A stretch of DNA of 64,000 nt from an uncultured Candidatus Rokubacteria bacterium (GCA_963826115.1 CAWGVS010000003.1:96001-160000); one strand, 5' to 3'; positions 43,654 to 64,000 are shown, counted from the stretch's first letter. Numbers and translations: made by a program. Notes: generated from the sequence alone by a model not told the origin.

Positions 43654-43669
43654 TGGCACCACGGTTGCT
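43654..43669 (+). promoter_or_regulatory. Sigma54 -24/-12 promoter
   Basis: TGGCAC-CACGG-TTGCT, immediately upstream of the DUF3300 gene. Confidence 0.8.
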
Positions 43670-43683
43670 TGTCACGATGTGAG

Positions 43684-44982
43684 ATGGCTTCCCCGAGCCG
43701 GATCATCAGCCTCGGGCTCACCGTGGTCCTGGTCGCCTCGGCCGGTCAGGCACAGTCCCCCCAGACAAGCCCACCGGCTCAAGGGCCGGCCGTCTTCACG
43801 CCAGACCAACTGGACCAGTTGCTGGCCCCAATCGCGCTCCATCCGGATCCCCTGGTTGGCCAGATCCTCATGGCCGCCACCTATCCGCTCGAGGTGGTCC
43901 AGGCGACCCGCTGGCTCCAGGACCCGAATCACGCGGCGCTGACCGGGTCGGCGCTGGCGGCGGCCCTCGACCTCCGGCCGTGGGATCCTAGCGTCAAGGC
44001 GCTCGTGTCCTTTCCCCAGATCCTTCGCATGATGGATGGAGCGCTCGAGTGGACGGAAGCAGTCGGCGACGCATTCCTGTCCGATCAGGTGGCCGTCATG
44101 GACGCGATCCAGCGGCTGCGCCTGCGCGCGCAGTCGGCCGGGACCCTGGTCACCACCCCGCAGCAGATGGTGCTGACACAGGACCAGGCGATCGGCATCA
44201 TCCCGGCCGATCCTCAGGTTGTCTACGTGCCGATGTACAACCCTGCTGCGGTGTATGGGACGTGGGTGTACGCGCCGAGTCCCTACTTCGGCTATCCCGT
44301 TGTCGCCCCCGTCGGGGTCGTCGGCGGCGTGGGCTTCGGCGTCGGCATCGTCGTCGTGCCGTACTTTTGGGGCTGGCATCACTGGGACTGGCCTCACCAC
44401 CGTCTTCACGTCGATCATGACCGGTTTGTTCACATCAGCGGTCACCGGCCCCCCCCCGGCGGCGTCTGGGTACACGACCCGGTCCACCGTCACGGGATCC
44501 CTTATCGCGATCCGGGAACGCGCGCGCGCTTTGTGCCTCCCCCTCACGGCGACGTGCGCGGCTACGGGACGGGCCTCCCGCCGGGGAGACCGGGCCCCGG
44601 CGCCAAGAGCGGGAGCGCGCCGCCGCGCGCTGCCGCTCCTCCGGGAAGCCCGGCCCCGCCCCGCGGGAACCCCGCCCCCGGCGGTGCCGGGAGCGCCCCC
44701 GTGGCGCGACCAACCACTCGTCTGACTCTGCCGCCACAGACCCCGACGACACGCCCCGCGCCACCTGCCGTCGGCGGAGCGCTCCGCCCGCTCGCCCCCG
44801 CCTTCGAATCCTTCGGACGGGGCGTCGATGTTCGCACGCAGACCGAGCGGGGCCAGTCGAGCCGCCGGTCCATCGCCCCATCGGTGCCGAAGGCTCCAGC
44901 CAAACCGCCATCAAGCGGGACGCGCTCCGGAGGAGTCCCCTCCGGGACCCCCAAGTCCGGGGGCAGTCAACCTCGCCGGTGA
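43684..44982 (+). CDS. DUF3300-domain protein with a Pro/Gly-rich tail
   Basis: LDQLLAPIALHPDPL..ATYPLEVVQA, WDPSVKAL, VMDAIQRLR, VYVPMYNP motifs. Confidence 0.9.
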   Translation: MASPSRIISLGLTVVLVASAGQAQSPQTSPPAQGPAVFTPDQLDQLLAPIALHPDPLVGQILMAATYPLEVVQATRWLQDPNHAALTGSALAAALDLRPWDPSVKALVSFPQILRMMDGALEWTEAVGDAFLSDQVAVMDAIQRLRLRAQSAGTLVTTPQQMVLTQDQAIGIIPADPQVVYVPMYNPAAVYGTWVYAPSPYFGYPVVAPVGVVGGVGFGVGIVVVPYFWGWHHWDWPHHRLHVDHDRFVHISGHRPPPGGVWVHDPVHRHGIPYRDPGTRARFVPPPHGDVRGYGTGLPPGRPGPGAKSGSAPPRAAAPPGSPAPPRGNPAPGGAGSAPVARPTTRLTLPPQTPTTRPAPPAVGGALRPLAPAFESFGRGVDVRTQTERGQSSRRSIAPSVPKAPAKPPSSGTRSGGVPSGTPKSGGSQPRR

Positions 44983-44995
44983 GGGTCACACGACG

Positions 44996-45940
44996 ATGAG
45001 ACGCACGGGCCAGTCACGAACGATCCGACCAGGCTGGCCGGTGCTGATCGCAGCACTCCTCTTGGTGGCCGCGAGTCCGCCGGGATGGACGGCGGGCGAG
45101 CCGCCGGCGACGTTCGCCTCGGCGCAGCAGGCCGTGGACGCGCTCGTGACCGCCACCAGGACTACCCGGCTGGCCGACCTGCGCCAGATCCTGGGCACGG
45201 CGGGGCGGGCTCTCATCTGGTCCGGAGATCGGGTTGCCGATCGCGTAGGGCGGGACAAGTTCATCGTGGCCTACGATCACGGCCATCGACTCGAGATGAC
45301 CGGATCGACCCGGGCAGTCCTGATCGTCGGCCCCGACCAGTGGCCCTTTCCCATCCCCTTGGTCCACGACGCGACGGGCTGGCACTTCGACACACCCGCC
45401 GGTGTCCAGGAGATCCTCAATCGACGCGTCGGGCGGAACGAGCTCAACGTCATCGAGGTCTGCCGGGCCTTCGTCGTGGCGCAGCGCGAGTATGCCGCGC
45501 GAAACCCGTTGGGAAGCGACCTCGCGGAGTTCGCCCAGAACCTCCTCAGCACGCCGGGGACCCGCGACGGCCTCTACTGGCCCGCCGAGCCGGGCGAGCA
45601 GGACAGCCCGCTCGGACCTCTGGTTGCGAGCGCCCGGGCCGAGGGCTACCAGCGCACGCCGGTCGCTCAGCCCATCCCCTACCACGGCTACTACTATCGG
45701 ATGCTCACGCGCCAGGGAGCCAACGCCCCCGGAGGCGCGCGCGACTACATCGTGGACGGCCACATGCGGGGAGGCTTCGCGCTGGTGGCGTTCCCCGCGA
45801 AGTACGGCAACTCCGGCGTCATGACGTTCCTGGTCAACCAGACCGGCATCGTCTACCAGAAGAACCTCGGTCCGGACACGGCGACCATTGGGCTCCAGCT
45901 CGCGGCGTTCGACCCCGATGCCACGTGGACGACGCCCTGA
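44996..45940 (+). CDS. DUF2950-family protein
   Basis: WPFPIPL, RRVGRNEL, DGLYW, PYHGYYY, YGNSGVMTF motifs; usual partner of DUF3300. Confidence 0.9.
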   Translation: MRRTGQSRTIRPGWPVLIAALLLVAASPPGWTAGEPPATFASAQQAVDALVTATRTTRLADLRQILGTAGRALIWSGDRVADRVGRDKFIVAYDHGHRLEMTGSTRAVLIVGPDQWPFPIPLVHDATGWHFDTPAGVQEILNRRVGRNELNVIEVCRAFVVAQREYAARNPLGSDLAEFAQNLLSTPGTRDGLYWPAEPGEQDSPLGPLVASARAEGYQRTPVAQPIPYHGYYYRMLTRQGANAPGGARDYIVDGHMRGGFALVAFPAKYGNSGVMTFLVNQTGIVYQKNLGPDTATIGLQLAAFDPDATWTTP

Positions 45941-46115
45941 CGCGATAGGTCGCGACTCCTGGTGAGCTTGCCTCCCCTTGTGAAGACTCGCTCTCCGCCA
46001 TCGAGGGTTCCCGGTCGACTGGACGCCTTCCGATACACAGGGAACCACGATCAGGATCCCGGCCTACTACCCCTCCGGCACCGACACAACGGCCATTGCA
46101 CACGCGCGACTACCC

Positions 46116-48482
46116 TCACGCATGCGGCCATGTCCAGTTCCGCACCTCCGGCCGGTCCTCCCCGTGCTCGGCGATGTACGCCTTGTGCTCGCTCCGACGA
46201 TCGCGCATCGCCTGCCTGACGTGCGGGGCGCGGGAGAGCAGCCCGGGGACGCGATCGATCACGTCCATCACGAGGTGGTAGCGGTCCAGATCGTTCAGCA
46301 CGACCATGTCGAAGGGCGTGGTGGTCGTGCCCTCCTCCTTGTAGCCGCGCACGTGGAGATTCCCGTGATTGGTCCGCCGGTACGTCAGCCGGTGGATGAG
46401 CCAGGGATACCCGTGGTAGGCGAAGACGATCGGCCGATCCGTGGTGAACAGCGCGTCGAACTCGGCGGTCGACAACCCGTGGGGATGCTCCTCGCTCGGC
46501 TGAAGGCGCATGAGGTCCACGACGTTGACGACCCGCACGCGCACCTCGGGCAGATGCTCGCGAAGCAGCGCCGCCGCCGCGAGGGTTTCGAGCGTCGGCA
46601 CGTCACCGGCGCACGCGAGGACCACGTGTGGATCCACGCCGCCGTCGGTGCTCGCCCACTCCCAGGTCCCGATGCCGGCGGCGCAGTGTGCCATCGCCGT
46701 CTCCATGTCGAGGTACTGAAGAGCGGGCTGCTTGCCCGCAACGATCACATTGACGTAGCCGCGGCTCCGTAAGCAGTGGTCCGCGACCGACAACAGCGTG
46801 TTGGCGTCCGGGGGCAGATAGACGCGAATCACCTCGGCTTTCTTGTTGACCACGTGGTCGATGAACCCGGGGTCCTGATGCGAGAACCCGTTGTGGTCCT
46901 GGCGCCAGACGTGCGAGGTCAGCAGATAGTTCAGCGACGCAATCGGAGGACGCCAAGGGATCTGGCGCGTCACCTTCAGCCACTTGGCGTGCTGGTTGAA
47001 CATCGAATCCACGACGTGGATGAACGCCTCGTAGCTCGAGAACAGTCCATGGCGCCCGGTGAGCAGGTAGCCCTCGAGCCATCCCTGGCAGGTGTGCTCG
47101 CTCAAAATCTCCATCACCCGCCCTTCGGCACCGAGGTGCTCGTCCTCCGGCCGCCGCTCGGCCATCCAGGCGCGGTCGGTTACCTCGAACAAGGCATCGA
47201 GGCGGTTCGACGCGGTCTCATCGGGGCCGAACACCCGGAAGTTGCGCCGGTCCCGGTTGAGCGTCATCACGTCACGCAGGAATCGACCGAGGGGCCGGGT
47301 GGCCTCCGCGACCACGACCCCCGGCCGGGGGACCTCCACCGCATGCTGGCGGAAGTCCGGTAGCTGGAGCTCCTCGAGCAGCAGTCCCCCATTGGCGTGC
47401 GGGTTCGCGCCCATGCGGCGGGCACCCGTCGGGGCGAGCTGGGCGAGCTCGCGGCGAAGCCGGCCCGATTCGTCGAACAGCTCTCCCGGCCGATAGCTCC
47501 GCATCCACATCTCGAGCTGTCGCAGGTGATCGGGGTGATCCGCCAGGCCAGCGAGCGGCACCTGGTGCGAGCGCCACGAACCCTCGGTCTTCTTGCCGTC
47601 CACTTCCTTCGGGCCGGTCCAACCCTTGGGGGTCACGAGGACGAGCGCCGGCCAACGAGGCCGGGTCGCCGGCCCGCCAGCGCGCGCGCGCCGCTGGATC
47701 GACCGAATCTCCCCGACGACGGCATCGAGGGTCGCCGCCATGGCCTCGTGCATCGAAGCTGGCTCGTCCCCCTCCACGACGTAGGGGCGGTGTCCGTAAC
47801 CGGTGAGGAGGCTCTCCAGCTCGGCCCGGCCGATCCGGGCCAGAACGGTCGGGTTCGCGATCTTGTATCCGTTCAGGTGGAGGATAGGCAGGACGGCACC
47901 GTCCGTCACCGGGTTGAGGAACTTGTTCGAGTGCCATGCCGTGGCGAGCGGCCCGGTCTCCGCCTCTCCGTCGCCAATCACGCACGCGACCAGGAGGTCG
48001 GGGTTGTCGAACGCGGCGCCATAGGCATGGGCGAGCGAATAGCCGAGCTCACCGCCCTCGTGGATCGAGCCGGGCGTTTCGGGCGCGACGTGACTGGGAA
48101 TCCCGCCCGGAAAGGAGAATTGCCGGAACAGACGCCGCATCCCGGCCTCGTCCCGGGAGACGTCCGGATAGCGCTCGCTGTACGTGCCCTCGAGGTACGT
48201 GTTCGCCACCATGCCCGGCCCGCCATGGCCCGGACCGCACACGTAGATGACGTCGAGGTCGCGCGCTCGGATCAGGCGGTTCAGATGCGCGTAGATGAAG
48301 TTCAGACCCGGAGTCGTCCCCCAGTGGCCGAGAAGTCGCGGCTTGACGTGGGCGATCTCGAGCGGCTTCCGGAGCAGCGGGTTGTCGAGAAGATAGATCT
48401 GCCCGACGGACAGGTAGTTCGCCGCCCGCCAGTAGGCGTCGATCAGGGCCAGCTCCCCTGTGGACAACACACCAGCAGCCAT
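46116..48482 (-). CDS. xfp: Xylulose-5-P/fructose-6-P phosphoketolase
   Basis: [34 protein letters not shown] (ThDP), [12 protein letters not shown]; SD AGGAGGA. Confidence 0.97.
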
Positions 48483-48808: not shown

Positions 48809-48826
48809 TGTCGCATCAGTGGGACA
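48809..48826. promoter_or_regulatory. Candidate enhancer (UAS) for a sigma54 activator
   Basis: TGTCGCA-TCAG-TGGGACA (TGT-N12-ACA, one mismatch from a perfect palindrome), about 85 bp upstream of the sigma54 site. Confidence 0.5.
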
Positions 48827-49006: not shown

Positions 49007-49954
49007 ATGACGACGATCAATCGAATCCTCTACGCGACGGATCTTTCCGCCACCTCGGAGGCGGCCTGGAGCGAGGCACGGCGACTCGGGCGCCTGTTCG
49101 ACGCCGAGATTGTGATCCTGCACGTGGTCACGCCGCCGGTCGTCTTCCCCGTCGAGGGATACTTCCCACCGGACCTTTACCAGGAATACCTTCGAAGCGC
49201 ACAACACGACGCGGAAAGAGGACTGGATCGCTTGCTCGGCAGCGTGGCGGGCTCGGGCCTCAAGGTCCGCCTCCGCCTCGAAGAGGGACCGCCGGCTCCA
49301 CGGATCCTCGACATCGCAAGCCAAGAGGCCGCCGACATTCTCGTGGTCGGCACGCACAGCCGCACGGGTCTCCGACGGGCCATGCTCGGGAGCATCGCCG
49401 ACCGGATGGTCCGCCAAGCGAGGTGCCCGGTCTTGACGGCCCGGCCTCAACCGGATGCTGCGCCTCCTGTCCAGATTCGTCGGATCTGCTACGCCACCGA
49501 CTTCTCCCCGACCGCCCGCGCCGCCTGGTCGTGGGTGGTCGCGATCGCCGGTGCCGCGAACGCCGAGGTCGACCTCGTTCACGTCACGTTCGAGCCGGTG
49601 GCCGACCGTCACATGCCCGCGGAGATGACCGGGCGCATGGCCCGGTTCCTCCGCGAGCAGGGCCACATGGAAGTCGAGCGGTTCCTGCAGCGGTCCACGC
49701 TGCCACGTGAGCGGATCCACGTGCACCTGTCCCCCGGAGTCCCGGGGGAGCAGATCGTCCATCGCGCTCTGGAGCGAGCCGCCGATCTCATCATCATGGG
49801 TACCCACGGCTGGTCCGGGGTCGTTCGCTGGGTGCTCGGTTCAGTCGCTCACTACGTGATCCAGACCGCGCCGTGCCCGGTGCTCACCATCGCGCCGGCC
49901 GGGGCACCGGGGGAATCGGGCGCAGGGACAGCGGCGGCGGGGATCACGCGATGA
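49007..49954 (+). CDS. Universal stress protein, tandem USP domains
   Basis: ILYATDLS / ICYATDFS; GTHSRTG...GSIA and GTHG...GSVA..APCPVL. Confidence 0.95.
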   Translation: MTTINRILYATDLSATSEAAWSEARRLGRLFDAEIVILHVVTPPVVFPVEGYFPPDLYQEYLRSAQHDAERGLDRLLGSVAGSGLKVRLRLEEGPPAPRILDIASQEAADILVVGTHSRTGLRRAMLGSIADRMVRQARCPVLTARPQPDAAPPVQIRRICYATDFSPTARAAWSWVVAIAGAANAEVDLVHVTFEPVADRHMPAEMTGRMARFLREQGHMEVERFLQRSTLPRERIHVHLSPGVPGEQIVHRALERAADLIIMGTHGWSGVVRWVLGSVAHYVIQTAPCPVLTIAPAGAPGESGAGTAAAGITR

Positions 49955-50379
49955 AGCCCATGCCCCATCACTACACGGTCCGGATCGCCGGGGGCCCGAG
50001 CGGTCCCGCGCTCGCCATGGCTGACGGTCTGCCCGACCTCGGAAGCGCACCGCCCCCCGAGTTCGGTGGCCCCGGCGGCGCGTGGAGCCCGGAGCACCTC
50101 CTGTTGGCTGCCGTGGAAGCGTGCTTCCTGTTCACCCTGCGAGCCGTCGCGCGGGCCTCGCACGTCGAGTTCGAGACGTGCGAGGTGACCGCCGAAGGGA
50201 CCGTCGACCGCACGGACGGTGTGACGCGCTTCACGGACATCCTCCTGCGGCCGCGTCTCAGGCTCGCGACCGGGACGGATCCGGACCGGGCACGGCGGGC
50301 CATGGAAAAGGCCGAGAAGGCGTGTCTCGTCTCGGCTTCGCTCGTGACGCCGGTCCGGCTCGAGGCTGAGCTCGCCTAG
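49951..50379 (+). CDS. OsmC/Ohr-family protein
   Basis: PPEFGG..WSPEHLL..AC and KAEKACLVSASL; ATGA overlap with usp. Confidence 0.9.
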   Translation: MKPMPHHYTVRIAGGPSGPALAMADGLPDLGSAPPPEFGGPGGAWSPEHLLLAAVEACFLFTLRAVARASHVEFETCEVTAEGTVDRTDGVTRFTDILLRPRLRLATGTDPDRARRAMEKAEKACLVSASLVTPVRLEAELA

Positions 50380-51195: not shown

Positions 51196-51373
51196 CGCAT
51201 GCCGCAGTGAAACGGCCCCTGCGAACACGCCGCCGTCCCAGCATGCGCCTCGGGGACGATGGCCGACCGCGCCGGGCTCGTCACCGCCCCCGCCGAGCTG
51301 GGCCGAGCTTTCGGTCGGGGCGCCGGTCTCGTCGCGGCCTGCGCATCCATCCCCCCGAGGCTCTCGAGTCCAT

Positions 51374-52324
51374 TCAGCTGGCCCGTCGTCCCGTCCGACT
51401 CGGCGGCCCTAGTTCGCCCTTCGCGCCAGAATCCCCCTCCCTGGGCGTGTCGGGTGCCAGCCCAAAGAGCCTGCCCGCAGTCCGGGCTCGGTGCTGCGGC
51501 TTGGCTAGCTCCCGGACACGCCCGTCCTCGATCAACAGGATGCGGTCGGCCTCCTGAGCGAGGCGGTCGTCATGAGTGATCATGATGAACGCGACTCCGT
51601 GCTCGCGGCTCATCTCCCGCATCAGGGCGAAGACCTCTTCACCGGCGCGGCTGTCCAGGTTCCCGGTCGGCTCGTCGGCCAGGATGATCTTCGGGGCGTT
51701 TGCCAGCGCCCGCACGATGGCACAGCGCTGGTTCTGGCCACCGCTCATCTCGCCGGGTCGCTTGTGCAGCTCCCCCTCGAGCCCGACCCGGCGCAGGAGT
51801 CCCACGACACGCGCCCGCTGAGCGTCGGTGACGCCTCCGCATCGGATGATGATGGGCATCAGGGCGTTCTCCAGGCAGCTGAACTCGTCGAGCAGGTAAT
51901 GGAACTGGAACACGAATCCGATCTCGTCGCTCCGGAAGTCGGCCAACCCATCGTCGTCGAGCCCACCGATGTCCACGCCGTTGATCACGACCGAACCGCC
52001 CGTGGGCGTGTCCAGGGCTCCGAGGAGGTTGAGAAGCGTCGTCTTCCCACTGCCCGACTGGCCGACGATCGCCACGAATTCGCCTGATCGGATCTCGAGG
52101 TCGACGCCGTGCAGAACCGGCACCGGCACCTTGCCACCATAGGTCTTCCGAAGATCGCGCGTCTCCACCACGACCGGCCCGGCAACCCGCGACTCGTCAT
52201 CACCGGGGTCAGAAGACCCGGCGGGATCGACCTCCGAGGGCGCCGGGCTGTCGGCGTCGGCGGGTCGTCGGCCTTGGGGCCCCGGGCCGGGACCGAGCGG
52301 GCGGCCTTGATCCGATGGCTTCAT
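51374..52324 (-). CDS. ABC ATP-binding protein (LolD/MacB-like)
   Basis: GQSGSGKT, MSGGQNQR, LADEPTGNLD motifs. Confidence 0.92.
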   Translation of the reverse strand: MKPSDQGRPLGPGPGPQGRRPADADSPAPSEVDPAGSSDPGDDESRVAGPVVVETRDLRKTYGGKVPVPVLHGVDLEIRSGEFVAIVGQSGSGKTTLLNLLGALDTPTGGSVVINGVDIGGLDDDGLADFRSDEIGFVFQFHYLLDEFSCLENALMPIIIRCGGVTDAQRARVVGLLRRVGLEGELHKRPGEMSGGQNQRCAIVRALANAPKIILADEPTGNLDSRAGEEVFALMREMSREHGVAFIMITHDDRLAQEADRILLIEDGRVRELAKPQHRARTAGRLFGLAPDTPREGDSGAKGELGPPSRTGRRAS

Positions 52325-53586
52325 CGCATCACGTCCACCGGGTTCAGCCGCGCGGCTCGGCGGGAGGGCAGATAGGCCGCCAGCACCGTCGCGACGATCG
52401 CCGCGCCCACGGCCAGGCCGATGTAGGCGGGCAGGATCGCCACCGGGAAGAACTGCTCGGGCAGCTGCCCCGGCCGATACGGGGGCTGTTCGATCCGCCC
52501 GAGGAGGAAGACGATCAGCGTGCCGACGACCGCCCCGATCGCACTTCCCGCGAAGGCGATCCCCAGGCCCTCGAGTACGAAGATGCGCAGGATCTGGCGC
52601 CGCCGAGCGCCGATCGCCTTCAGGATGCCGATCTGCTTGGACTTCTGCAGCACCGAGACGATGAGCACGGACGCGATGGCGAACGACGAGGCGACCAGGC
52701 TGAAGATCGAGATGAGATACGCGGTCGCGCTCTGCATCCGGAGCCGGTCCAGGAAGACCGGAAACTCGCGCGACCAGGACTTTGCCTCGTACGGCACGAG
52801 TCCCATGATCTGGTCCGCGATCTCGTCTGCGCTGTAGATGTCGCGCAGCTTCACGTACACGATGTTGACGGCGGTCCCCAGTCCGAACAGGCTCTGGGCC
52901 GTGCGCAGGGTGATATAGGCGTCGCCGCGACCCTGGCCGCGACTGTAGATGCCCACGATGGTGAACGTCTCGGACGCCCCGGTGTTCGACAGGAGCCGGA
53001 TGCGCTCGCCCATCACCAGGTTCAGGTCCTTCGCGAGCTCCGTGTCCACGACGATCTCGTCGCTTGCGAGATCCCGGAATCGGCCCATCACCATGTACTT
53101 CGTGATCGGAGTGACCTCGTCCTGGAGCACCGGATCCGCCCCGACGACACCGACCCCGACGGCGTGACTGCCCTTGGACGCGAATCCCTGCTGCCGGACG
53201 ACGGGGTTCACGAGGGCCACACCGGGCAGGGCCCGGATCGTCTCGGTCACGCGCGGCCAGTCGTCGATGTCCTTCTGCTGGGGCGCTAGCTGGTCAATGC
53301 GGCTCGAGCTCGGTCCCGGTGGGGCGCCTGGAACCTCGGCCAGCGGGGTCGGCTTGGGATCCTCGACGCGGATGGTCACGTGCGGAATGGCCTCGGTCAG
53401 GAGGGCGGTCAGCTTCCGGTGGAGGCCGAAGATCAGCGCCGTGACGAAGATCACGATGATCACTGCGGCGGCGACCGCGCTGATCGTCAGCCACGTCTGG
53501 CCGCCGCCCGATCGAAGGTGACGGGCGGCCACCAGGAGCTCGAAGCGAAGCCCCGGCCGGCGCGCCGCGGGCCGCTCCCCGCTCAC
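52321..53586 (-). CDS. ABC permease (LolC/E, FtsX/MacB-like)
   Basis: QIGILKAIGA, YLPSRRAARLNPVD motifs; GTG start overlaps the upstream stop. Confidence 0.9.
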   Translation of the reverse strand: MSGERPAARRPGLRFELLVAARHLRSGGGQTWLTISAVAAAVIIVIFVTALIFGLHRKLTALLTEAIPHVTIRVEDPKPTPLAEVPGAPPGPSSSRIDQLAPQQKDIDDWPRVTETIRALPGVALVNPVVRQQGFASKGSHAVGVGVVGADPVLQDEVTPITKYMVMGRFRDLASDEIVVDTELAKDLNLVMGERIRLLSNTGASETFTIVGIYSRGQGRGDAYITLRTAQSLFGLGTAVNIVYVKLRDIYSADEIADQIMGLVPYEAKSWSREFPVFLDRLRMQSATAYLISIFSLVASSFAIASVLIVSVLQKSKQIGILKAIGARRRQILRIFVLEGLGIAFAGSAIGAVVGTLIVFLLGRIEQPPYRPGQLPEQFFPVAILPAYIGLAVGAAIVATVLAAYLPSRRAARLNPVDVMR

Positions 53587-54995
53587 CGCCCCCCTCGCTC
53601 GCTCGAGGAACGGATTCGGACGCGGTCCCCAGGATGGATCGCCACGGGGTTCGTGATCACGCGGTCGTCGAGGCCGAGTCCGCCCACTACGGGAACGCCG
53701 TCCTTCGTAGGCGGTCGCGTCTGGACCATCTTCTCGACCGCGCGAGAGTTCTGCACCACCAGCACGACGGTCCGGTCCCCGACCCGACGTAGCGCCACCG
53801 CCGGCACCAGAATTCGTTGCGCGGCCGGGTTGGTCACGATGTTGACGTTGACCGTCTGCCCGGGACGCAGCCACCCCGGTGGCTTGTTCGGCACGACGGT
53901 CACCATGATCGTCCCGCGCGTCTGATCGACAGCGGCGGCGATCTCGGAAACGGATCCCGCGAACGTGGATCCGAGGAACGTGCCAGAGGAGATGACCGCG
54001 GACTGGCCGACCGCAAGATCAGCGAGATTGGTCTCGTCGACGTCCACGTGGATCTCCAGCTCGTTGCTGACCAGCCGCAGGACGCCCTGGGCTCCCACCG
54101 TCTGGCCCACCTCGGCATTGATCGCCGTCACCACCCCGCCGAAGGGCGCGAGCACGACCGCCTCCTGCGCCTGGCGACGAGCCACCGCCAGGGCTCGCTC
54201 GGATTCCCGCACGCGCTCCCGGGCGATCGCGACGTCTTCCGGTCGAGCGCCGACCTCCAGCGTCCGCAGCCGAGCCTCCTGGACTCCGACGTTGGCCTCG
54301 GCGGCGGCCACTCCTCCGCGGAACGCGCGCACGACGGTCTCGGCGACGGCAACCGCCTGCCGCTGGGCAGCGACCTGCTGCTCCACCACGCGGGAGCGGG
54401 TCAGAGCTTCGTCGTGCTCGGCCCTGGCGACGAGCCCGCGCTCGAGCAGCCGCTCGGCCCGCTCCAGCTGACGGGCAGCCAGCTCCCGCTCAGCCTGGTG
54501 CTGAGCGAGCTGAGCCTGCGCCTGAACGACGGTCTGTTCGGCCTGGGCCAGCGACGACTGCTGCTGAGCGAGTTGGGCGCGGGCCTGCTGGACCTGCGCC
54601 GTCGCGGCCTCGAGCTCGGACGGCAGCGCGCCGCGCGCCACCTGAACCAGCGTGGCCTGAGCGGTCGTCAGGGCCGCCTCCGCCTGCGCAACCCGGGCCT
54701 CGGCAACGTCGCTCTTGATGAGCGCCAGCCTCTGACCCGCCGAGACCCGTTCCCCTTCCTGAACGTAGAGCCGCTCCACGACTCCGGCCGCCTGGGCCCC
54801 CGCGAGCGTCTCGGTGACCCCGCGGACCCGTCCGCTGCTGGCGATCGATTCGATGATGCTGGCGGGCACCGGCCGAGCGACGGACACGTCCTTGGCCCGC
54901 TGCCCCCACCAGATCCCGGCTCCGACCGTCAGGACTCCCAGCAGGACCAGGGACATGATCCAGGAGCCCCTGAGTCTAGGCACAGTCCTCTCCAT
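53583..54995 (-). CDS. Efflux periplasmic adaptor (MacA/HlyD-like) with a long coiled coil
   Basis: N-terminal TM; lipoyl halves VQEGERVSAGQ and APFGGVV; LRPGQTV motif. Confidence 0.9.
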   Translation of the reverse strand: MERTVPRLRGSWIMSLVLLGVLTVGAGIWWGQRAKDVSVARPVPASIIESIASSGRVRGVTETLAGAQAAGVVERLYVQEGERVSAGQRLALIKSDVAEARVAQAEAALTTAQATLVQVARGALPSELEAATAQVQQARAQLAQQQSSLAQAEQTVVQAQAQLAQHQAERELAARQLERAERLLERGLVARAEHDEALTRSRVVEQQVAAQRQAVAVAETVVRAFRGGVAAAEANVGVQEARLRTLEVGARPEDVAIARERVRESERALAVARRQAQEAVVLAPFGGVVTAINAEVGQTVGAQGVLRLVSNELEIHVDVDETNLADLAVGQSAVISSGTFLGSTFAGSVSEIAAAVDQTRGTIMVTVVPNKPPGWLRPGQTVNVNIVTNPAAQRILVPAVALRRVGDRTVVLVVQNSRAVEKMVQTRPPTKDGVPVVGGLGLDDRVITNPVAIHPGDRVRIRSSSERGGR

Positions 54996-57011: not shown

Positions 57012-57260
57012 CAGACCGACCCGCCTCCGGACCGCCGACGCGGTGACACGGTTTCCCTCTGGAAAGGCAGCGCGCCCCGAACAGCCGCCAGCACGCGAGC
57101 GACGCCGGAACGGGTCGCCTGCTCCCGCGCGAAGCCGACGAACGGCAGGTCGTGTCTCGTGACGCGCGCGATCCGCGCCTGCAACGAGAGCAACCGCGAC
57201 GGCGCCCGGAGCCCTGCCACTCGAGCCCACCGCGGCATCAGGGGGCCTCGGACAGCGGCC

Positions 57261-59267
57261 TCAGGCCGCGCCGGTGCTGAACGGGTGCAACGCCGGGAGC
57301 ATCCGCGTCTCGGCGGCGGTGATGGGCCGCACCGCTTGCGTCTCATCGAACCAGATGTACTCGTCGAACTGGTACGGCAGTGAGGCGTGGAAGTAGTGGC
57401 TCTGGAGCTCCGTGTCCGGCCGGTAGACGACGCCGACGGCGCGCTCGAGTCGAGAGGACGCCAACTCCGCGCGCACCTCCTCGCGCGCCGGAGCGCGGAG
57501 ATGCAGCCGGAAGGCCTTGACGCCCGAGTCGTGACACAGGCGCTCGTAGCTCTCGGGATGGGCGGGCCGCAGCTTCATGATCCGCATCGGCCCATCCCAA
57601 TCATGCGCGGCGGCAACTGTCCCGTGATCGGTGCCGAACCCGACCAGGGAGACCGCGTCGCCGAATCGTTCCCGGCACAGCTGTCCGAGATTCAGCTCGC
57701 CGCGCGCGCTCATCTCGGTCGCCCGCGCGTCACCGAGATGCGAGTTGTGCGCCCACACGACGGCTTTCGAGGATGGCCCGTGGAACGCGAGCAGGCGCTC
57801 GAGCGTGTCGAACATGTGCCGGTCGCGCTGATTCCAGGACTCGGCCGCTCCGTAGTACATCGACCGGTAGTAGCGCTCGGCGTCAGCGACGAGGCGCGCA
57901 TTCTGCACGGCGTCGAGGAACCGCTCGCCGTCCCGTTCCGCATAGTCGAGCTCCCGGCTGAGCATGTCGCGCAACATCGCCACCGCCTCCTTCTCGCAGA
58001 CGCGGTAGCGCCCGCTGATGGCGGCACGCCCATAGGCTTGCGGATCGGCCTGCCAGGGCGTCAAGCAAGAGTACCGCTCGCGGGCAAGGCGGGCGGCCGG
58101 CGGATCCACCCGCTCCAGGTACTCGAGCACGGAGCGAATCGACGCGAACAGACTGTACAGATCCAGGCCGTAGAAACCGGCCTGCCGCGTCGGCTCGTGG
58201 GCCTCGGCGTTGAAGACCCGCAGCCACTCGACGAAGCCCCACGTCTCGTGGTTCCGCCACATCCAGGTCGGAAACCGCGCAAACACCGACTCCTCGGGAC
58301 GGTGCCCATCCGGAAGCGCCTCGACGTAGCGATTGACGCGGCGCGCATCCGGCCAGTCGGCCTCGACCGCGACGATCCGGAACCCGCGGGTGCGGATGAG
58401 CTCCTGGGTGATGCGAGCGCGCATTCGGTAGAACTCGGAAGTGCCGTGCGTCGCTTCACCGATCAGGACCAGTCGCGATTCGCCGAGCCGCTCGAGCAGC
58501 GCGCCGAGATCCTGGCCATCGATCGATGCGAGCGGCTCGGCGACTTCACGCAGGAGGTGAACCAAGGTGCCTGGACGGCTCAGGGTCTGCGCGGGACGCC
58601 CGTTCCACTCGGTCGGCTCTGCCGTCCAGCCCTGCGTCCCAATCAGCGGCACGAAGCGCACGTCGCCGAGCTCTTCCTCGCGCAGCCGGCCATCCGCTTC
58701 CCGGGTCACCCGGAGCAGGCGTTGAACGCTTCGGCCCTCCCCTACCGGAATCACGAGACGCCCGCCGGGTGCCAGCTGGTCCAGCAGCGCCTCGGGGACT
58801 TTCGGGCCACCTGCCGCGACGACGATCGCGTCGTATGGGGCATGCTCGGGCCAGCCGAGCGTGCCGTCACCATGCAGCACGAGGACGTTCGAGAATCCAA
58901 GCCGGGCAAGACGTTCGGTCGCGACGCGGGCCAGCTCCTCGTGCCGCTCGACCGTATAGACCTCGCGAGCGATCCGGCCGAGAATCGCCGCCGCGTAACC
59001 AGAGCCCGTCCCCACCTCCAGCACGCGATCCCCGGGGCGAAGGGCCGCCGCCGCGGTCATGAGCGCGACGATGTAGGGCTGCGAGATCGTTTGCCCCCGC
59101 TCGATCGGCAGGGGCGCATCCGCATACGCGAACTCCTCGAGCTTCGGCGGTAGGAACGCCTCCCGCGGGACATTCCGCATCGCCTCGAGCACGGCCGGGT
59201 CACGGACGCCTCGAGCGGCGATGTGGGCACGAACCATGCGCACTCGTTCGTCGACCAGGTTCATCAT
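57261..59267 (-). CDS. pcm: Protein-L-isoaspartate O-methyltransferase fused to an erythromycin-esterase (Ere/TIKI superfamily) domain
   Basis: GQTISQPY, VLEVGTGSGY, VRFVPL (PCMT); GEATHGTSEFY, EADWPD, WAHNSH, ERAVGV (Ere). Confidence 0.92.
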   Translation of the reverse strand: MMNLVDERVRMVRAHIAARGVRDPAVLEAMRNVPREAFLPPKLEEFAYADAPLPIERGQTISQPYIVALMTAAAALRPGDRVLEVGTGSGYAAAILGRIAREVYTVERHEELARVATERLARLGFSNVLVLHGDGTLGWPEHAPYDAIVVAAGGPKVPEALLDQLAPGGRLVIPVGEGRSVQRLLRVTREADGRLREEELGDVRFVPLIGTQGWTAEPTEWNGRPAQTLSRPGTLVHLLREVAEPLASIDGQDLGALLERLGESRLVLIGEATHGTSEFYRMRARITQELIRTRGFRIVAVEADWPDARRVNRYVEALPDGHRPEESVFARFPTWMWRNHETWGFVEWLRVFNAEAHEPTRQAGFYGLDLYSLFASIRSVLEYLERVDPPAARLARERYSCLTPWQADPQAYGRAAISGRYRVCEKEAVAMLRDMLSRELDYAERDGERFLDAVQNARLVADAERYYRSMYYGAAESWNQRDRHMFDTLERLLAFHGPSSKAVVWAHNSHLGDARATEMSARGELNLGQLCRERFGDAVSLVGFGTDHGTVAAAHDWDGPMRIMKLRPAHPESYERLCHDSGVKAFRLHLRAPAREEVRAELASSRLERAVGVVYRPDTELQSHYFHASLPYQFDEYIWFDETQAVRPITAAETRMLPALHPFSTGAA

Positions 59268-59330
59268 TTCACTCCGCCTCGGGAGCCCGGCCAAGGAACG
59301 CCGGCCATCCGGTCGGCGTCCCGGGGACGC

Positions 59331-59750
59331 TCATTCCTCGGACACCAGGTCCTGGACCGCCCGCAGCACGTCGATGTAGCTGACGATTCCGACCACTTCA
59401 CGCGTGTCTGGCTGAACCACGGGGATCGCGCCCACCTTGTTCTCGATCATCAGGTCGATCACCTCGCCCAGGTCGGTCTCCGGCTCGACCGAGATGACGT
59501 CGGAGCTCATCGCCTCGACGACCGGCGCGGCGAGCGCCCGCCGGAGGGCGTCCGCTCCCTCCGTCGTCAGCAGGCGCCCCACGTCCAGGGCGGCGAGATC
59601 GCGGTCGCTCAGCATGCCAAGCAGGATTCCACCTCGCGCGACGGGCACGTGGCGAATGTCAGCCTCGCGCATGACGTCCCACACCTCCGCCAGAGTCGCC
59701 TGCGGAGTCATGGTGATCGGATTCCGCGTCATCACCTCATGGGCTTTCAT
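59331..59750 (-). CDS. CBS-domain pair protein
   Basis: VMTRNP..IRHVPV..SDRD and MSSDV..GAIPVV..GIVS. Confidence 0.92.
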   Translation of the reverse strand: MKAHEVMTRNPITMTPQATLAEVWDVMREADIRHVPVARGGILLGMLSDRDLAALDVGRLLTTEGADALRRALAAPVVEAMSSDVISVEPETDLGEVIDLMIENKVGAIPVVQPDTREVVGIVSYIDVLRAVQDLVSEE

Positions 59751-59772: not shown

Positions 59773-60711
59773 CTAGCCGGGCGAAGTGATCACCTGAGGA
59801 TAGAGTCGGTCGACGTCTTCGCGGCGGCAGAGCGCGGTTCCTGGATTCATCACGGCCGCCGCGCCGGCGGCGACTCCGAAACGCACGGCCTCGCTCAGGG
59901 CACGCCCCCGGGCGAGGGAGAGCACGATGCCCGCCACCAAGCTGTCGCCGGCCCCCACGCTGCTCTTCACCTGGACGGCCGGAGAGGCCAATCGCTCCCG
60001 CTCCGAGGCGGTCACCCACAGAGCACCCCCGGCTCCGAGCGAAAGGACCAGGATCTCGCACCAGCCACGCTTGACGGCCGTGGCCGCGAGACTCGCCAGC
60101 TGCGACTCGTCGCCTCCCTGCTCCCCCGTCAGCGCCCGGAACTCCCGAAGGCTCGGCTTCAGGAGATAGACGCCCTCCTCGACGGCGCGGGCGAGCGGCG
60201 CTCCCGAGGTGTCCAGCACCACCCGGCTTCCGATCTCCCGGCCCACCGCTGCCAGGCGCGCGTAGAAGTCGACCGGGACCCCGGGCGGCAAGCTGCCGCT
60301 CGCCACCAGAAAGTCCGGCGGCGGGCGCAGCTGACGCACCCAGTCCAGGAAGACCGGCCACTCCCGGTCGCCGAGGGCCGCGCCCGGCATGCAGAAGCGG
60401 AACTGGCGGCCGCTCACCTCCTCCAGGACGTTCAGATTCTCGCGCGTCCAGCCGTCCACCGGCATCGGCGCGTGCGGCACGCCTTCTCCGTCGAGCAATC
60501 GCTTCAGCAGCTCGCCGGCCGGCCCCGCCGCGGGGAAGCAGGCCAGCGCGTCTCCGCCGAGCTTCCGGATCGCTCGCGCGACGTTGATCCCCCCGCCTCC
60601 CGGCTCGAATGTCGGGGCTCGGCACCGGAGCTTCTGCTCGGGCAGGACGTAGGGAACGCTGGTGCTCTCGTCGACCGCTGGGTTCATCGTGAGCGTGACG
60701 ATCGAGCGCAT
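59773..60711 (-). CDS. pfkB: PfkB-family hexose kinase (phosphofructokinase-2-like)
   Basis: TLTMNPAVD, PGGGGINVAR, SGSLPPG, VGAGDS motifs; SD GGAGGG. Confidence 0.9.
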   Translation of the reverse strand: MRSIVTLTMNPAVDESTSVPYVLPEQKLRCRAPTFEPGGGGINVARAIRKLGGDALACFPAAGPAGELLKRLLDGEGVPHAPMPVDGWTRENLNVLEEVSGRQFRFCMPGAALGDREWPVFLDWVRQLRPPPDFLVASGSLPPGVPVDFYARLAAVGREIGSRVVLDTSGAPLARAVEEGVYLLKPSLREFRALTGEQGGDESQLASLAATAVKRGWCEILVLSLGAGGALWVTASERERLASPAVQVKSSVGAGDSLVAGIVLSLARGRALSEAVRFGVAAGAAAVMNPGTALCRREDVDRLYPQVITSPG

Positions 60712-60737
60712 CGGTGGCCCCTCCGACGAGAGGCGCA

Positions 60738-61757
60738 TCACTCGATTGCGCGCTCGAGCTCGGGCGCGTATCGCCCATCGCGCGCCGCGCTGTTGCAGCG
60801 TGCCCGGTGATGGAGGGCTCGTTGCCCGGCGGCCACGAGGGCCGGCTTCCCGTGCCATCGCCGCATGGCGTCATCCTGCAAGGCCCGCCCGTAGGAAAAG
60901 CTCAGTGCCCACGGATGAGGGCCACCCTTGGCATTGATGGCATTCAGGTGAGCGGTCGCGAGAACGGCCGTCTGTCCTCCCGATAGGAACACGATCCCGG
61001 GCACGGCAGCGGGGACGGCGCGCCTGAGACAGCGAATCGTCGACGTCGCGACCTCTTCCACGTCGGCCTGGCGAGGGCAGCTCTTGCCGGCGAGCACCAT
61101 GCTCGCCTTCAGGAGCATCGCCTCCGGAACGACGCGCTGATGACGGAGGGCCGAGAAGACCGCGTGCAGCGTGGCCTCGGTGACCTCGAAGCACCGCGCG
61201 ATGGTGTGATCCCCATCCATCAGGACCTCGGGTTCGACGATCGGGACGAGGCCGGCGTCCTGGCACGCCGCCGCGTAGCGAGCGAGCGCGTGCGCATTCG
61301 CCTCGATGCAGCGTGCGCTGGGGATGCCCGGTCCGATGGCGATCACTGCCCGCCACTTCGCGAAGCGCGCGCCGAGAGCCTTGTACTCGCCGAGCCGATC
61401 GCGAAGCCCGTCGAGCCCCTCGGTGACTACCTCGCCGGCCGCGCCGGCCAGCGGTCTCGTGCCCGTGTCCACCTTGATGCCGGGCAGGGTCCCCCGCCGT
61501 GTGAGGAGCTCGGGGAAAGGCGTGCCGTCATCGGCCTTCTGCCGAATGGTCTCGTCGAACAGGATGACGCCGCTGATGAAGTCGGAAATGTCTCGGGTCG
61601 TGAAGAGCAGCTGCCGATAGAGACGGCGATTCTCCTCGCTGTTCTCGATGCCGAGGGCCGCGAAGCGCTTGGCGATCGTGGGATGGCTCTCGTCGGCAGC
61701 CAGGATCCCCCTTCCCGGGGCAACCAGTGCTCGCGCAATCGATTCCAGGGCGTCCAT
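60738..61757 (-). CDS. Class I fructose-bisphosphate aldolase (eukaryote-like glycolytic family)
   Basis: GILAADES, GIKVD, FAKWR, PIVEPEV, LLK (Schiff-base Lys), FLSGGQ, FSYGRALQ. Confidence 0.95.
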   Translation of the reverse strand: MDALESIARALVAPGRGILAADESHPTIAKRFAALGIENSEENRRLYRQLLFTTRDISDFISGVILFDETIRQKADDGTPFPELLTRRGTLPGIKVDTGTRPLAGAAGEVVTEGLDGLRDRLGEYKALGARFAKWRAVIAIGPGIPSARCIEANAHALARYAAACQDAGLVPIVEPEVLMDGDHTIARCFEVTEATLHAVFSALRHQRVVPEAMLLKASMVLAGKSCPRQADVEEVATSTIRCLRRAVPAAVPGIVFLSGGQTAVLATAHLNAINAKGGPHPWALSFSYGRALQDDAMRRWHGKPALVAAGQRALHHRARCNSAARDGRYAPELERAIE

Positions 61758-61786
61758 GTCCGTTTCCTCGCCCGCTCCCGGCCCGT

Positions 61787-62440
61787 TCAGCCCCCGAGCA
61801 CGAGCCCGTTCGTGACGCTCGAGACCCCGGGCGACGCCCACGCCACACGCTCGGCTTCCTGCCTCTCGGCCCACGACCGCACGTTGCCCCGCAAGGTGAC
61901 GGCACTACCTTCGATCTCCACGGTGACGCGACGGGCGTCAACCTCGGCGCTGCGCCGGAACGCGTCTTCGATTCTCGTCTTGATGGTCTCGGACGTGGGT
62001 CGCGGCCTGACCGTCACATGATTCCGGATGCCCAGCACGCCGGTGAGCCGTCGCACGGCGTCTTCGGCCGCAGTCCGCTGGTGCCCCCACTCGACGGCTC
62101 CCTCCAGGGTGATCCAGCCTTTGCTCACGACAACCTTGATGCGGTCGGGCGGGATGGAGCTGTTCCACTCGAGAAGCTGGACCGCCGCGCGCGCGAGGTC
62201 CACATCCGAGCGCCGGCTCCCGCCGGGCAGGTGCACCTCGATCTCGCTCGCCATCCCCTTCACGCCGGCCACCCGCAGCGCGGCTCGCTCGGCCTCGATC
62301 TTCTCGTGGAAGTTCTGAACCTCGCCGCTCAGGGTCACGACGCCATCCGTCACCGCCACGCCGATCCCCGCGGACTTGATGCCGGGCTCCCATTCCAGCT
62401 CGTCCACCACTTGATCCTTCAGGAGCACGTCCGTCTTCAT
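61787..62440 (-). CDS. Triple BON-domain protein (OsmY-like)
   Basis: Three BON repeats (DGVVTLSG, GWITLEG, AVTLRG..AWASPGVSSVTN); SD GAGGAGAGG. Confidence 0.92.
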   Translation of the reverse strand: MKTDVLLKDQVVDELEWEPGIKSAGIGVAVTDGVVTLSGEVQNFHEKIEAERAALRVAGVKGMASEIEVHLPGGSRRSDVDLARAAVQLLEWNSSIPPDRIKVVVSKGWITLEGAVEWGHQRTAAEDAVRRLTGVLGIRNHVTVRPRPTSETIKTRIEDAFRRSAEVDARRVTVEIEGSAVTLRGNVRSWAERQEAERVAWASPGVSSVTNGLVLGG

Positions 62441-62568: not shown

Positions 62569-63540
62569 TCAGGGCCCACCCCTCGATTCGACCTCCACCA
62601 AGCTCCGCTTCCCTTCAGCCCACTCGGGATGGAGACCCAGCCGTCCGAGCGTGCTGAGCGCCCGATCCGGGTCCCCCCAGTCGCTCCACGAGACTCCCCG
62701 AACCGGCAGTACTGCGAGATTGCCCGGCCCGGTGCTCAGCACGTCGTCCGAGAAGTTCGTCGAGGGGAGCGTCGCGTAGAGCGATCGCATGGCTTCGCGC
62801 TCGCCGAGGGTCGCATGGCGGAGCCACGCCGCCGTGAACGCGCTGAAGAGATCGGGCACGGACTCCCGAATCAGGCCGAGCAGCGCAGGCACCCGACCCA
62901 CGAGGACAAAGCTGTTCCAGAGACAACCGCGCTCGAAGAGCATTTCGGCGACCGCCGCCGTGGGCTTCTCCCAGAATCGCCGGACCCGGTACACCGGATA
63001 CGCGGGCCGCTCGATGAGCGGATCCCCGACCTCGATCCAGCCGTACTGCACCTCCGGACTATCCGCGCGAATCCCCAGCAGGATCACGAGGTCGGGACGA
63101 GCCTCGACCGCGGCGAAGGCCGCTTCCACGTGGGCCATGAAGCGCGCGTCGTCCGAGACGTGGTGATCCGAGGGGAATAGGGCCACCGCGTCCGACGATC
63201 CTCCGTCCGCGACGCGCAGGAGCCCGTAGAGGATCGCGGGAGCAGTGCCCCGGCCCTCGGGCTGAAGGGCCAACAACGGACCCGGCGCCCCCTCGGCGAG
63301 AAGCGGCGCATAGAAGCGCTCGTGGGAGCGGGTCAGGACCAGGCACGTCCGATCCGGTCTCACGGCCCGCGCCACACGCGCTCGCGTCCCGTCCAGCAGC
63401 GTCACGCCGTCCATGAGCGCGCAGAACTGCTTCGGCCGCTCGTCGCCCGCAATCCGTCGCGTCAGCGGCCGGAGCCGCATCCCCTCCCCTCCGGCCAGGA
63501 TGATCGCCGATCGGCCTGCTCGCCCCGTCGGGAAGTCCAT
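62569..63540 (-). CDS. Sugar-phosphate nucleotidyltransferase (mannose-1-P guanylyltransferase-like, no isomerase domain)
   Basis: ILAGGEGMRLRPL..PKQF, GTAPA, PSDH, YGWI, FWEKP, WSDWG motifs; alternative start 63561. Confidence 0.85.
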   Translation of the reverse strand: MDFPTGRAGRSAIILAGGEGMRLRPLTRRIAGDERPKQFCALMDGVTLLDGTRARVARAVRPDRTCLVLTRSHERFYAPLLAEGAPGPLLALQPEGRGTAPAILYGLLRVADGGSSDAVALFPSDHHVSDDARFMAHVEAAFAAVEARPDLVILLGIRADSPEVQYGWIEVGDPLIERPAYPVYRVRRFWEKPTAAVAEMLFERGCLWNSFVLVGRVPALLGLIRESVPDLFSAFTAAWLRHATLGEREAMRSLYATLPSTNFSDDVLSTGPGNLAVLPVRGVSWSDWGDPDRALSTLGRLGLHPEWAEGKRSLVEVESRGGP

Positions 63541-63607
63541 CCCCCTGCCCTGGATCGACATCTCATCCGCTCGGCCGACTTGAAGGAGGCCCATGTGCGT
63601 AATGCGT

Positions 63608-63623
63608 AGCAACGGCGCTGCCA
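63608..63623 (-). promoter_or_regulatory. Sigma54 -24/-12 promoter
   Basis: Minus strand TGGCAG-CGCCG-TTGCT, heading the long leftward gene run. Confidence 0.72.
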
Positions 63624-63785
63624 CTCTCGACATCTGCCATGGGCGGGCGCATCCCCGCCCGGAGGTGGCCGGCAGGCCCATCGGGGTCGCTTGCGCCGAA
63701 CGACGATGCGGACTGCCCGCCCCACACGGGGCAGCGATGGGACACCGCCCGGACCACCGCGCCCATGTCCGATGCATGGCGGCGG

Positions 63786-63801
63786 TGGCACTCGGGTTGC
63801 A
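63786..63801 (+). promoter_or_regulatory. Sigma54 -24/-12 promoter
   Basis: TGGCAC-TCGGG-TTGCA (perfect consensus) upstream of the usp start. Confidence 0.82.
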
Positions 63802-63862
63802 CCTCGACGCGGTGGTGCCGCGCCGGCAAGCGTGGAAAGCGAGCGCCAGTAGGGGGAAGACG

Positions 63863-64000
63863 ATGGGGTTGAAAGATCTGCTGGTGCACGTGGACAACGA
63901 CCCGGCATGCGGCTCGCGCGTGGACGTCGCGGTCGCCTTGGCCGCGAAACATGGAGCTCATCTCACGGGCCTGCATGCCATGGGACGCCCTCCCCAACTG
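63863..64000 (+). CDS. Universal stress protein, N-terminal part (runs off the window; not in the ORF track)
   Basis: Manual translation MGLKDLLVHVDNDPACGSRVDVAVALAAKHGAHLTGLHAM; SD-like AGGGGGA. Confidence 0.85.
   Translation, partial: MGLKDLLVHVDNDPACGSRVDVAVALAAKHGAHLTGLHAMGRPPQL

Follow-up and report, generated by a model that had tools for sequence, protein, structure and literature searches.

We analysed a 64,000-nucleotide stretch of DNA from an uncultured Candidatus Rokubacteria bacterium (GCA_963826115.1 CAWGVS010000003.1:96001-160000; hereafter the window, with positions counted from its first letter) and found that stress and repair genes in its right-hand part (38000-64000) are preceded by a cluster of sigma-54-like promoter boxes. 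We propose, at a probability of roughly 0.6, that this region is a survival island that stays silent until activated, with at least six sigma-54 units answering to one or a few distal activators under oxygen or energy limitation. Sigma-54 promoters are silent until an upstream-bound AAA+ enhancer-binding protein remodels the closed complex; since the island's promoters would need such an activator, its genes would be off in growth and switched on together. The sigma-54 holoenzyme would sit on the six island promoters, closed during growth, and their opening, all six together, would be the work of one or a few AAA+ activators whose genes lie outside the window, oxygen or energy limitation (growth arrest) being the likeliest trigger.

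The boxes are far more frequent than expected by chance. The exact pattern YGGCANNNNNNTTGCW (YGGCA-N6-TTGCW) occurs five times in the window, at 43654(+), 48911(+), 55010(-), 63608(-) and 63786(+), against a mean of 0.20 and a maximum of 1 in 100 dinucleotide-preserving shuffles of the window, none of which reached five; these are the five positions that a first-pass annotation of this DNA had listed. A relaxed scan, in which the GG and GC dinucleotides had to stand at the fixed distance and 9 or more of the 11 consensus positions had to match, returned seven sites to the right of 38 kb and two to the left (7/9 in the right 26 kb). The additional right-hand sites were a good one at 56049(-), CGGCACCGCGGTTGCG, and a weak one at 43275(-), TGGCATGCCGGCTGCA. 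On the left, 21794(+) and 4734(-) were recovered, the latter probably a chance match, so that the annotation's statement that the left 37 kb hold no box stands for the exact pattern and falls for the relaxed one.

We refer to the five exact sites and the good relaxed site as P1 to P6, from left to right. All six are intergenic and on the strand of the downstream gene, the distance from box end to start codon being ~14-80 nt, and they score 9-11 of the 11 consensus positions with the GG and GC dinucleotides at the consensus spacing (TGGCAC-N5-TTGCW). P1 (43654..43669, +, TGGCACCACGGTTGCT, 11/11) lies 15 nt ahead of the ATG at 43684 and faces a DUF3300 gene followed by a DUF2950 gene, and P2 (48911..48926, +, CGGCATCACCGTTGCA) faces a gene for a tandem universal stress protein (USP) and then one for an OsmC-like peroxiredoxin. 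P3 (55010..55025, -, TGGCAGAGCCATTGCA) heads the HlyD adaptor, MacB/FtsX permease and ABC ATPase genes of a MacAB-type exporter. P4 (56049..56064, -), the box from the relaxed scan, is placed 23 nt ahead of an ATG, within a 77-nt gap, and faces a small open reading frame (ORF) of Zn-ribbon-like type and a NUDIX gene. P5 (63608..63623, -, TGGCAGCGCCGTTGCT) precedes a run of genes that begins with an NTP-transferase and ends with a 375-aa protein, and P6 (63786..63801, +, TGGCACTCGGGTTGCA, 11/11) faces a second USP gene starting at 63863, as annotated; its orthologue in a close relative carries a Usp domain (2.8e-16). For the five boxes known from the first pass, Pfam and NCBIfam agree with the reading of the sequence that each is intergenic and faces the head of a gene or operon. 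The nine-gene leftward run that had been drawn behind 63608 holds as far as the 375-aa protein; as one run it is broken by the internal box P4. A search of the intergenic regions at 44-64 kb for sigma-70-like promoters was negative, the sole two consensus matches lying inside the DUF3300 gene.

The spacing between box and start codon can be very short. An SLT transglycosylase gene outside the island, encoding a signal peptide, has a box, TGGTACGAACGTTGCT, at 21794(+), 14 nt ahead of its ATG (21794-21823), and in this gene, the DUF3300 gene (43665-43686, +) and the HlyD gene (54993-55014, -) the start codon comes 15-16 nt past the C of TTGC. Sigma-54 promoters at these three genes would imply near-leaderless mRNAs. 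Several boxes in related loci sit 7-14 nt ahead of predicted starts.

For comparison, genome contigs were searched with a PCMT/EreA-like (erythromycin-esterase-like) fusion protein encoded behind P5; 592 of the 600 candidates passed confirmation, and we retained the 80 best (L001-L080), their taxon names being record labels throughout. Two close relatives, L001 (a metagenome-assembled genome, MAG, labelled Candidatus Rokubacteria) and L003 (a bacterial MAG), share the fusion protein at 91% identity and DNA at 78-90% identity. P1 is covered by none of the loci, and the conservation figures concern P2-P6. L001 or L003 covers five boxes, and all five are preserved there (16/16, 16/16, 16/16, 16/16 and 15/16 positions), which is the conservation in orthologous loci on which the first-pass proposal depended. 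In the divergent P5/P6 region each box is identical to L001 at 16/16 positions, whereas the remaining intergenic DNA matches at 41/92 positions and the two leaders at 37/77 and 37/62. P2 reads CGGCATCCCCGTTGCA in L003 (15/16, the sole change falling in the spacer), and the blastn match to that locus begins at 48905, i.e. at P2, the DNA further upstream being unalignable. P4 matches L003 at 16/16 positions, with 12 extra nucleotides inserted directly downstream in that locus. P3 is identical too (16/16), yet the region is 86% identical overall, so this match is little informative. The prediction that the boxes are real -24/-12 promoters is well supported by their number, placement, orientation and conservation.

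The fusion gene allowed us to look at promoter type well beyond these relatives. We examined the 350 nt upstream of it in all loci with DNA there (77 of 80), with 200 Markov shuffles as the null. Same-strand sigma-54-like boxes matching at least 10 of 11 positions were present in 6/77 loci against 0.26 expected (L002, L004, L010, L036, L042 and L079, labelled as two Myxococcota, two 'delta proteobacterium' MAGs, Nitrospira and Planctomycetia), and at a threshold of at least 9/11 in 16/77 loci against 2.8 expected (at most 8 in any shuffle). The corresponding counts for the opposite strand were one and four loci. An FNR/FixK box (TTGA-N6-TCAA) was found in 18/77 loci against 0.41 expected, every one of them labelled as an alpha-, beta- or gamma-proteobacterium or simply 'proteobacterium'. 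Both kinds of box occur together in just two loci, the sigma-54-like one being weak (9/11) in each. Over the whole loci and the window the FNR box is strongly enriched (87 vs 13 expected), with none in the window at 38-64 kb and one in its left 38 kb. Promoter type ahead of a conserved gene is swapped across phyla: -24/-12 promoters require an ATP-driven activator and FNR/FixK-type sites use a CRP/FNR-type recruiter, and a gene preceded by FNR-type sites in Proteobacteria and, in several other phyla, by -24/-12 boxes makes a clear case of regulator replacement round a conserved module. Boxes of at least 10/11 are placed non-randomly in the loci, and the genes downstream of them include Hsp20 (L008, L014, L018, L026), USP (L014), BON and DUF2267 (L026, L009), a ribosome hibernation factor (L001, L055), hemerythrin (L014, L022, L036) and DksA-like genes (L009, L013).

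Elements upstream of the boxes offer candidate activator sites. About 85 nt upstream of P2 lies a dyad, TGTCGCATCAGTGGGACA (48809..48826), whose TGTC-N10-GACA form is kept in L003 (TGTCGCGGCGGTGGGACA) despite differing flanks. Between the divergent P5 and P6, a block at 63716..63746, CCCGCCCCACACGGGGCAGCGATGGGACACC, is 28/31 identical to L001 within the 45-60% identical region and is a candidate activator site common to both promoters, judging from its conservation. Closer to P6, 16 nt upstream of it, CCCATGTCC (63762..63770) is 9/9 identical to L001.

How the island relates to known regulons bears on the likely signal. DosR belongs to the NarL-type response regulators and works at ordinary promoters, and sigma-54 is not known from mycobacteria; the DosR regulon includes a PfkB kinase and a P-type ATPase. 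Rv2030c, Rv2626c and Rv2623 are further members (PMC7387457). At the level of families the DosR-like gene content noted in the first pass is sound, with USPs, a PfkB kinase, a CBS protein, an EreA-like fusion and a P-type ATPase all present in the window. The likeness of the fusion to Rv2030c extends to the erythromycin-esterase part; its N-terminus is a PCMT domain, whereas the M. bovis BCG orthologue of Rv2030c, a DosR regulon member, is described (PMC7387457) as a fusion of phosphoribosyltransferase and erythromycin-esterase homologue. No NarL/GerE response regulator and no DosS/DosT-type kinase domain was detected by Pfam among 53 window ORFs. A loose form (GGGAC-N3-7-GTCC) of the palindromic DosR box, with its half-sites GGGAC/GTCCC, was tried and set aside: it occurs nine times in the window against 9.6 expected, 0/9 in a promoter region.

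Low-oxygen regulons of Proteobacteria contain genes with the same annotations. In Bradyrhizobium diazoefficiens at 0.5% oxygen, raised genes include the PCMT bll4651 (marked as a FixK2 target), the CBS protein blr4646, the USP bll4644, the PfkB-type kinase blr4659 and the phosphoketolase bll2518 (PMC6515984), a likeness to the window genes at the level of annotation. The lxa locus of Burkholderia cenocepacia is a low-oxygen-activated set of 50 genes that includes USPs and has an FNR/Anr-like motif, TGA-N6-TCA (PMC3721108). Unlike these FNR/Anr-type systems, the window island has -24/-12 boxes and lacks TTGA-N6-TCAA.

The closest precedent is the NmpRSTU system of Myxococcus xanthus, in which the NtrC-like activator NmpR receives its input from a globin-coupled kinase that depends on heme. 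NmpR binds GCGCA-N5-TGCGC, in paired sites within ~100 bp upstream of the sigma-54 site, and turns on sigma-54 promoters of genes for a CBS protein, a USP, a P-type ATPase with a cbb3 oxidase, and hemN-hemerythrin; the CBS-protein promoter was shown in that work of 2025 to rise under hypoxia (PMC11841059). Myxococcus therefore already provides a hypoxia regulon of sigma-54/NtrC type whose targets include USP and CBS genes, and the first-pass suggestion of a possibly undescribed regulon needs qualifying. The CBS, USP and P-type ATPase families occur in the window and boxes precede hemerythrin genes in L014, L022 and L036, likenesses at family level only. Where the NmpR set centres on the cbb3 oxidase and heme synthesis, the larger gene set of the window has repair and glycolysis at its core; in addition, the window shows no nmp genes, and the phylum label is another one. 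New here would be the uncultured lineage, the larger, repair-centred gene set and the different activator site, which would carry the NmpR precedent beyond Myxococcota. Our literature searches found no paper on Rokubacteria and sigma-54 and nothing relevant on sigma-54 with Hsp20, USP and an enhancer-binding protein. One Myxococcales MAG (L076) has four perfect GCGCA-N5-TGCGC sites (1005-1038, 4334-4348, 6334-6348), two of them 60-75 nt upstream of weak sigma-54-like boxes (4409+, 6424+) and a few kb from the fusion gene.

RtcR-rtcBA and AcoR-acoABC are sigma-54 operons of another kind, gene sets with their own dedicated activators. Beside the island in L001, boxes precede archease-rtcB (12297-14257) and an operon for an acetoin-type E1alpha/E1beta/E2 dehydrogenase and an AMP-ligase (14966-19905), with a further box ahead of a ribosome hibernation factor (608-1024). 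Unlike the classical systems, the first two L001 operons have no adjoining RtcR- or AcoR-like activator gene, and both are absent from the window itself.

Because FNR/FixK sites in Proteobacteria, DosR in mycobacteria and NmpR in Myxococcus control related genes, we take oxygen or energy limitation to be the likeliest signal for the island; by this analogy a low-oxygen or growth-arrest signal is plausible, and a single regulon under a single activator is conjectural. A number of observations count against the silent survival island as we propose it. The gene for an enhancer-binding protein, which the first pass had already called unseen, was not found in the 64-kb window by a GAFTGA scan or by tblastn with the L005 activator. 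Dyad enumeration, k-mer enrichment and pattern scans revealed no architecture common to all six promoters; the words that recurred in those scans (GGGGCA, GGGACA, GCCCCAC) remain candidates. GGGGCA(G) is present upstream of boxes in 6-8 of 9 regions from the window, L001 and L003, and GGGACA in 6/9, an enrichment that is tentative, since the comparison was with largely coding DNA and two of the nine regions are orthologues of each other. The window holds three copies of GCCCCACNCNG against 2.6 expected, so that it is not enriched overall; two of these three and both L001 copies lie upstream of boxes, and a copy in L007 lies 35 nt ahead of one. The NmpR site, with up to two mismatches, occurs 12 times in the window (8.65 expected), never upstream of a box, and 267 times in the loci (260 expected). 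Since it is neither enriched nor upstream of the boxes, a Nmp-like regulator would have to differ in DNA specificity; membership in the DosR, FNR/FixK and NmpR regulons fails in each case on the defining DNA site. P1, and P3 counted to its ATG at 54995, are only 15-16 nt from the start codon and would thus yield near-leaderless mRNAs, which is unusual. The phosphoketolase, ZIP and ATPase genes have no good box. The L001 boxes stand ahead of the rtcB-archease and E1/E2 dehydrogenase/AMP-ligase operons, sets that have their own activators elsewhere, and expression of the island in the lineage of the window is predicted from sequence and analogy.

Because those boxed L001 gene sets have activators of their own elsewhere, it is a serious possibility, if not a likely one, that the promoters are real sigma-54 promoters divided among several circuits, unrelated to one another and with separate activators and signals (envelope, metal or osmotic stress, RNA damage, carbon source); clustering would then come from heavy use of sigma-54 in this lineage and from the grouping of accessory genes on an island, with no single dormancy regulon. 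Separate circuits would also suit the lack of an upstream motif shared by all promoters, the conserved elements of P2 differing from those of P5/P6, and the well-placed box ahead of the SLT transglycosylase gene outside the island. Dedicated activators, however, usually adjoin their targets, and neither the GAFTGA scan nor tblastn showed one next to the boxes of the 64-kb window or anywhere within 22-kb L001; as no box has an adjoining activator gene, distal master control fits. A common theme of maintenance and repair among the genes, the boxing of the same families together in several phyla, and the recurrence of GGGGCA/GGGACA and GCCCCAC words upstream of several boxes likewise speak for joint control. 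A more radical alternative, that the matches are chance in GC-rich DNA (the window is 71% G+C) or sites of some other DNA-binding protein, we consider highly improbable. In its favour, the boxes are predicted from sequence, two of them are unusually near start codons, and unfiltered matches of at least 10/11 across all 80 loci are about half noise, since 58 were found and ~29 are expected from mononucleotide shuffles. Against this stand the excess in the window (5 vs 0.2, 0/100 shuffles reaching 5), the intergenic position and co-orientation of every box with its gene, for which a symmetric operator would have no need, the non-palindromic form of the motif, the two boxes identical at 16/16 positions inside 45-60% identical DNA, and the strand bias upstream of the fusion gene (at least 10/11 in six loci on the same strand vs one on the opposite). 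The silent survival island therefore remains our preferred reading. Entry into and survival of growth arrest in uncultured soil bacteria are largely unknown. Sigma-54 promoters switch in an all-or-none manner, and an island of repair and survival genes under their control would provide clean markers of entry into dormancy in the metatranscriptomes of uncultivable lineages.

A candidate for a direct sensor comes from the loci. The GAFTGA scan picked up one gene in the 80 loci plus the window, and tblastn placed activators in 3 of the 80 loci: L005 (two), L014 and L009 (partial). The L014 activator (7362-8936, +, 524 aa) combines a Sigma54_activat domain (1.6e-61) with a GAFSGA loop and a Fis-type helix-turn-helix; it adjoins an hsp20 gene (9032-9502, box at 9549), the fusion gene being ~1 kb away, and has homologues at L005 32-1201 (-) and, in part, at L009 21432-21983 (-). 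Its N-terminal domain has 334 homologues at E <= 1e-3, the few named ones being Binatus, Binataceae and Acidoferrales, and none of the 334 has a precomputed Pfam domain over the N-terminal part. That part matches Pfam Protoglobin below the cut-off (E 0.0046) and the PDB chain 7o0i_B ('anti-anti-sigma factor') at E 0.2. A whole-protein model (predicted local distance difference test, pLDDT, 63.6) gave only AAA+ activators in the fold search and was replaced by a model of residues 34-203, for which the pLDDT was 92 and the top Foldseek matches in the PDB were cytoglobin, the AfGcHK sensor globin (template-modelling score 0.63-0.69), a Geobacter globin-coupled sensor, BpeGReg and DosC, at modest E-values from 6e-3 upward. 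The domain is thus predicted by modelling to have a globin fold.

Whether this domain binds heme is doubtful, because an Asp seems to replace the presumed proximal (F8) histidine and the column is not conserved: in the weak 7o0i_B alignment (E 0.2) the Asp stands opposite His102, taken by its position as the proximal histidine, and the column varies among 29 homologues. H39 and H164 are invariant and H135 and C121 nearly so, and the domain may be a non-heme sensor globin. A literature search found no description of a globin-coupled sensor fused to a sigma-54 activator. By analogy, such a globin-fold activator may be relevant to the window promoters and is a testable candidate for the direct sensor. 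Taking these strands together, one can conceive of the maintenance-and-repair toolkit, under DosR, FNR/FixK2 and Anr control in other bacteria, as a sigma-54 regulon in at least four non-proteobacterial lineages (by record label Rokubacteria, Myxococcota together with Binatia-like 'delta' MAGs, Planctomycetia, and Nitrospira), switched in the lineage of the window by one distal master activator whose DNA specificity would differ from that of NmpR and which would act on at least six units, the Binatia-like activator being a one-component protein whose receiver has been replaced by the globin-fold sensor (L014 7362-8936). We regard this combination as speculative and rather unlikely to hold in full; if it did, proteins of the L014 type would represent an output class not described for globin-coupled sensors. 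In 'delta proteobacterium'/Binatia-like loci (L008, L009, L010, L011, L014 and L018), TTGGCA[ACG]CA and GCGATTGGCTACATC occur ~60-130 nt upstream of TGGCGCG-N4-TTGCT boxes, preceding those of Hsp20 and DksA-like genes, and are candidate sites of a local activator.

The island itself is a compositionally distinct block of ~26 kb (38-64 kb), because at ~38 kb the G+C content drops from ~0.73-0.75 to 0.66-0.70 and third-position G+C drops too. It looks like a flexible (variable) island: compared with the close relatives whole genes differ, the class I fructose-bisphosphate aldolase (FBA) being missing in L001 and the ZIP transporter in L003, where an additional Met-rich secreted ORF sits between phosphoketolase and usp. 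No tRNA and no Rfam family at gathering score was found in the window, and neither a tRNA nor an integrase was seen at the island edge, so there was no sign of a tRNA-linked border.

Behind P1, the DUF3300 protein (43684-44982, +; PF11737 1.4e-69) has a signal peptide, and the DUF2950 ORF (44828-45940, +; PF11453 3.9e-106) is of uncertain true start. The tandem USP gene behind P2 (49007-49954, +; Pfam Usp 8.9e-59 in two stretches) begins at the ATG at 49007 with a GAGGGA Shine-Dalgarno and is followed by the OsmC ORF (49873-50379, +; Pfam OsmC 4e-20). The MacAB-type exporter (51374..54995, -) comprises the HlyD adaptor (53583-54995), the MacB/FtsX permease (52321-53874) and the ABC ATPase (51374-52324), and after it comes the ZIP transporter (50434-51228), all assigned by Pfam. 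The translated small ORF behind P4 (55795-56025, -) is Cys-rich and has a GGAGGGG Shine-Dalgarno, and the NUDIX hydrolase gene follows (55250-55738, -; Pfam 3.4e-14). The operon run behind P5 (56103..63531, -) encodes in order the NTP-transferase (62569-63531), a 3xBON protein (61787-62440), class I FBA (60738-61874), a PfkB-type kinase (59773-60858), a CBS pair (59331-59750), the PCMT/EreA-like fusion (57261-59294), all with Pfam/NCBIfam assignments, and the 375-aa protein (56103-57230). Pfam, NCBIfam and Atlas gave no name for this last protein, and relatives of it occur in 30 of the 80 loci, making it a conserved unnamed neighbour of the fusion gene. The second USP gene (63863..64000, +) is truncated by the window end, its ATG preceded by GGGGGAAG. 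The island also holds a phosphoketolase gene (46116..48482, -; Pfam XFP domains), for which the best upstream candidate box scored just 8/11 and was rejected, and a Mg-type P-type ATPase gene (40411-42996, -; TIGR01524, 909.9 bits).

By function, the island genes cover nucleotide-binding stress proteins (USP, CBS), protein repair (the fusion of PCMT and EreA-like hydrolase), nucleotide clean-up (NUDIX), peroxide defence (OsmC), the envelope (BON, DUF3300/DUF2950) and transport (MacAB-type exporter, ZIP, Mg-type ATPase). PfkB, class I aldolase and phosphoketolase together represent sugar-phosphate catabolism able to yield ATP without respiration.

The weak relaxed match TGGCATGCCGGCTGCA (43275..43290, -) is a possible seventh box, ~280 nt upstream of the Mg-type P-type ATPase gene; an ORF that overlaps it (43054-43455) has no family in Pfam or NCBIfam and no relatives. 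Adjoining P1, an 87-aa ORF (43367-43630, -) is similar to DrrB/ABC-2 permeases over their C-terminal quarter alone (TIGR01247, positions 165-222 of 236) and is a gene remnant. In the left part of the window, a palindrome, TGTCTAGACAACTAGACA, at 22886-22903 marks the head of a GntR/UTRA regulator gene (22893-23666) and is probably the regulator's own operator.

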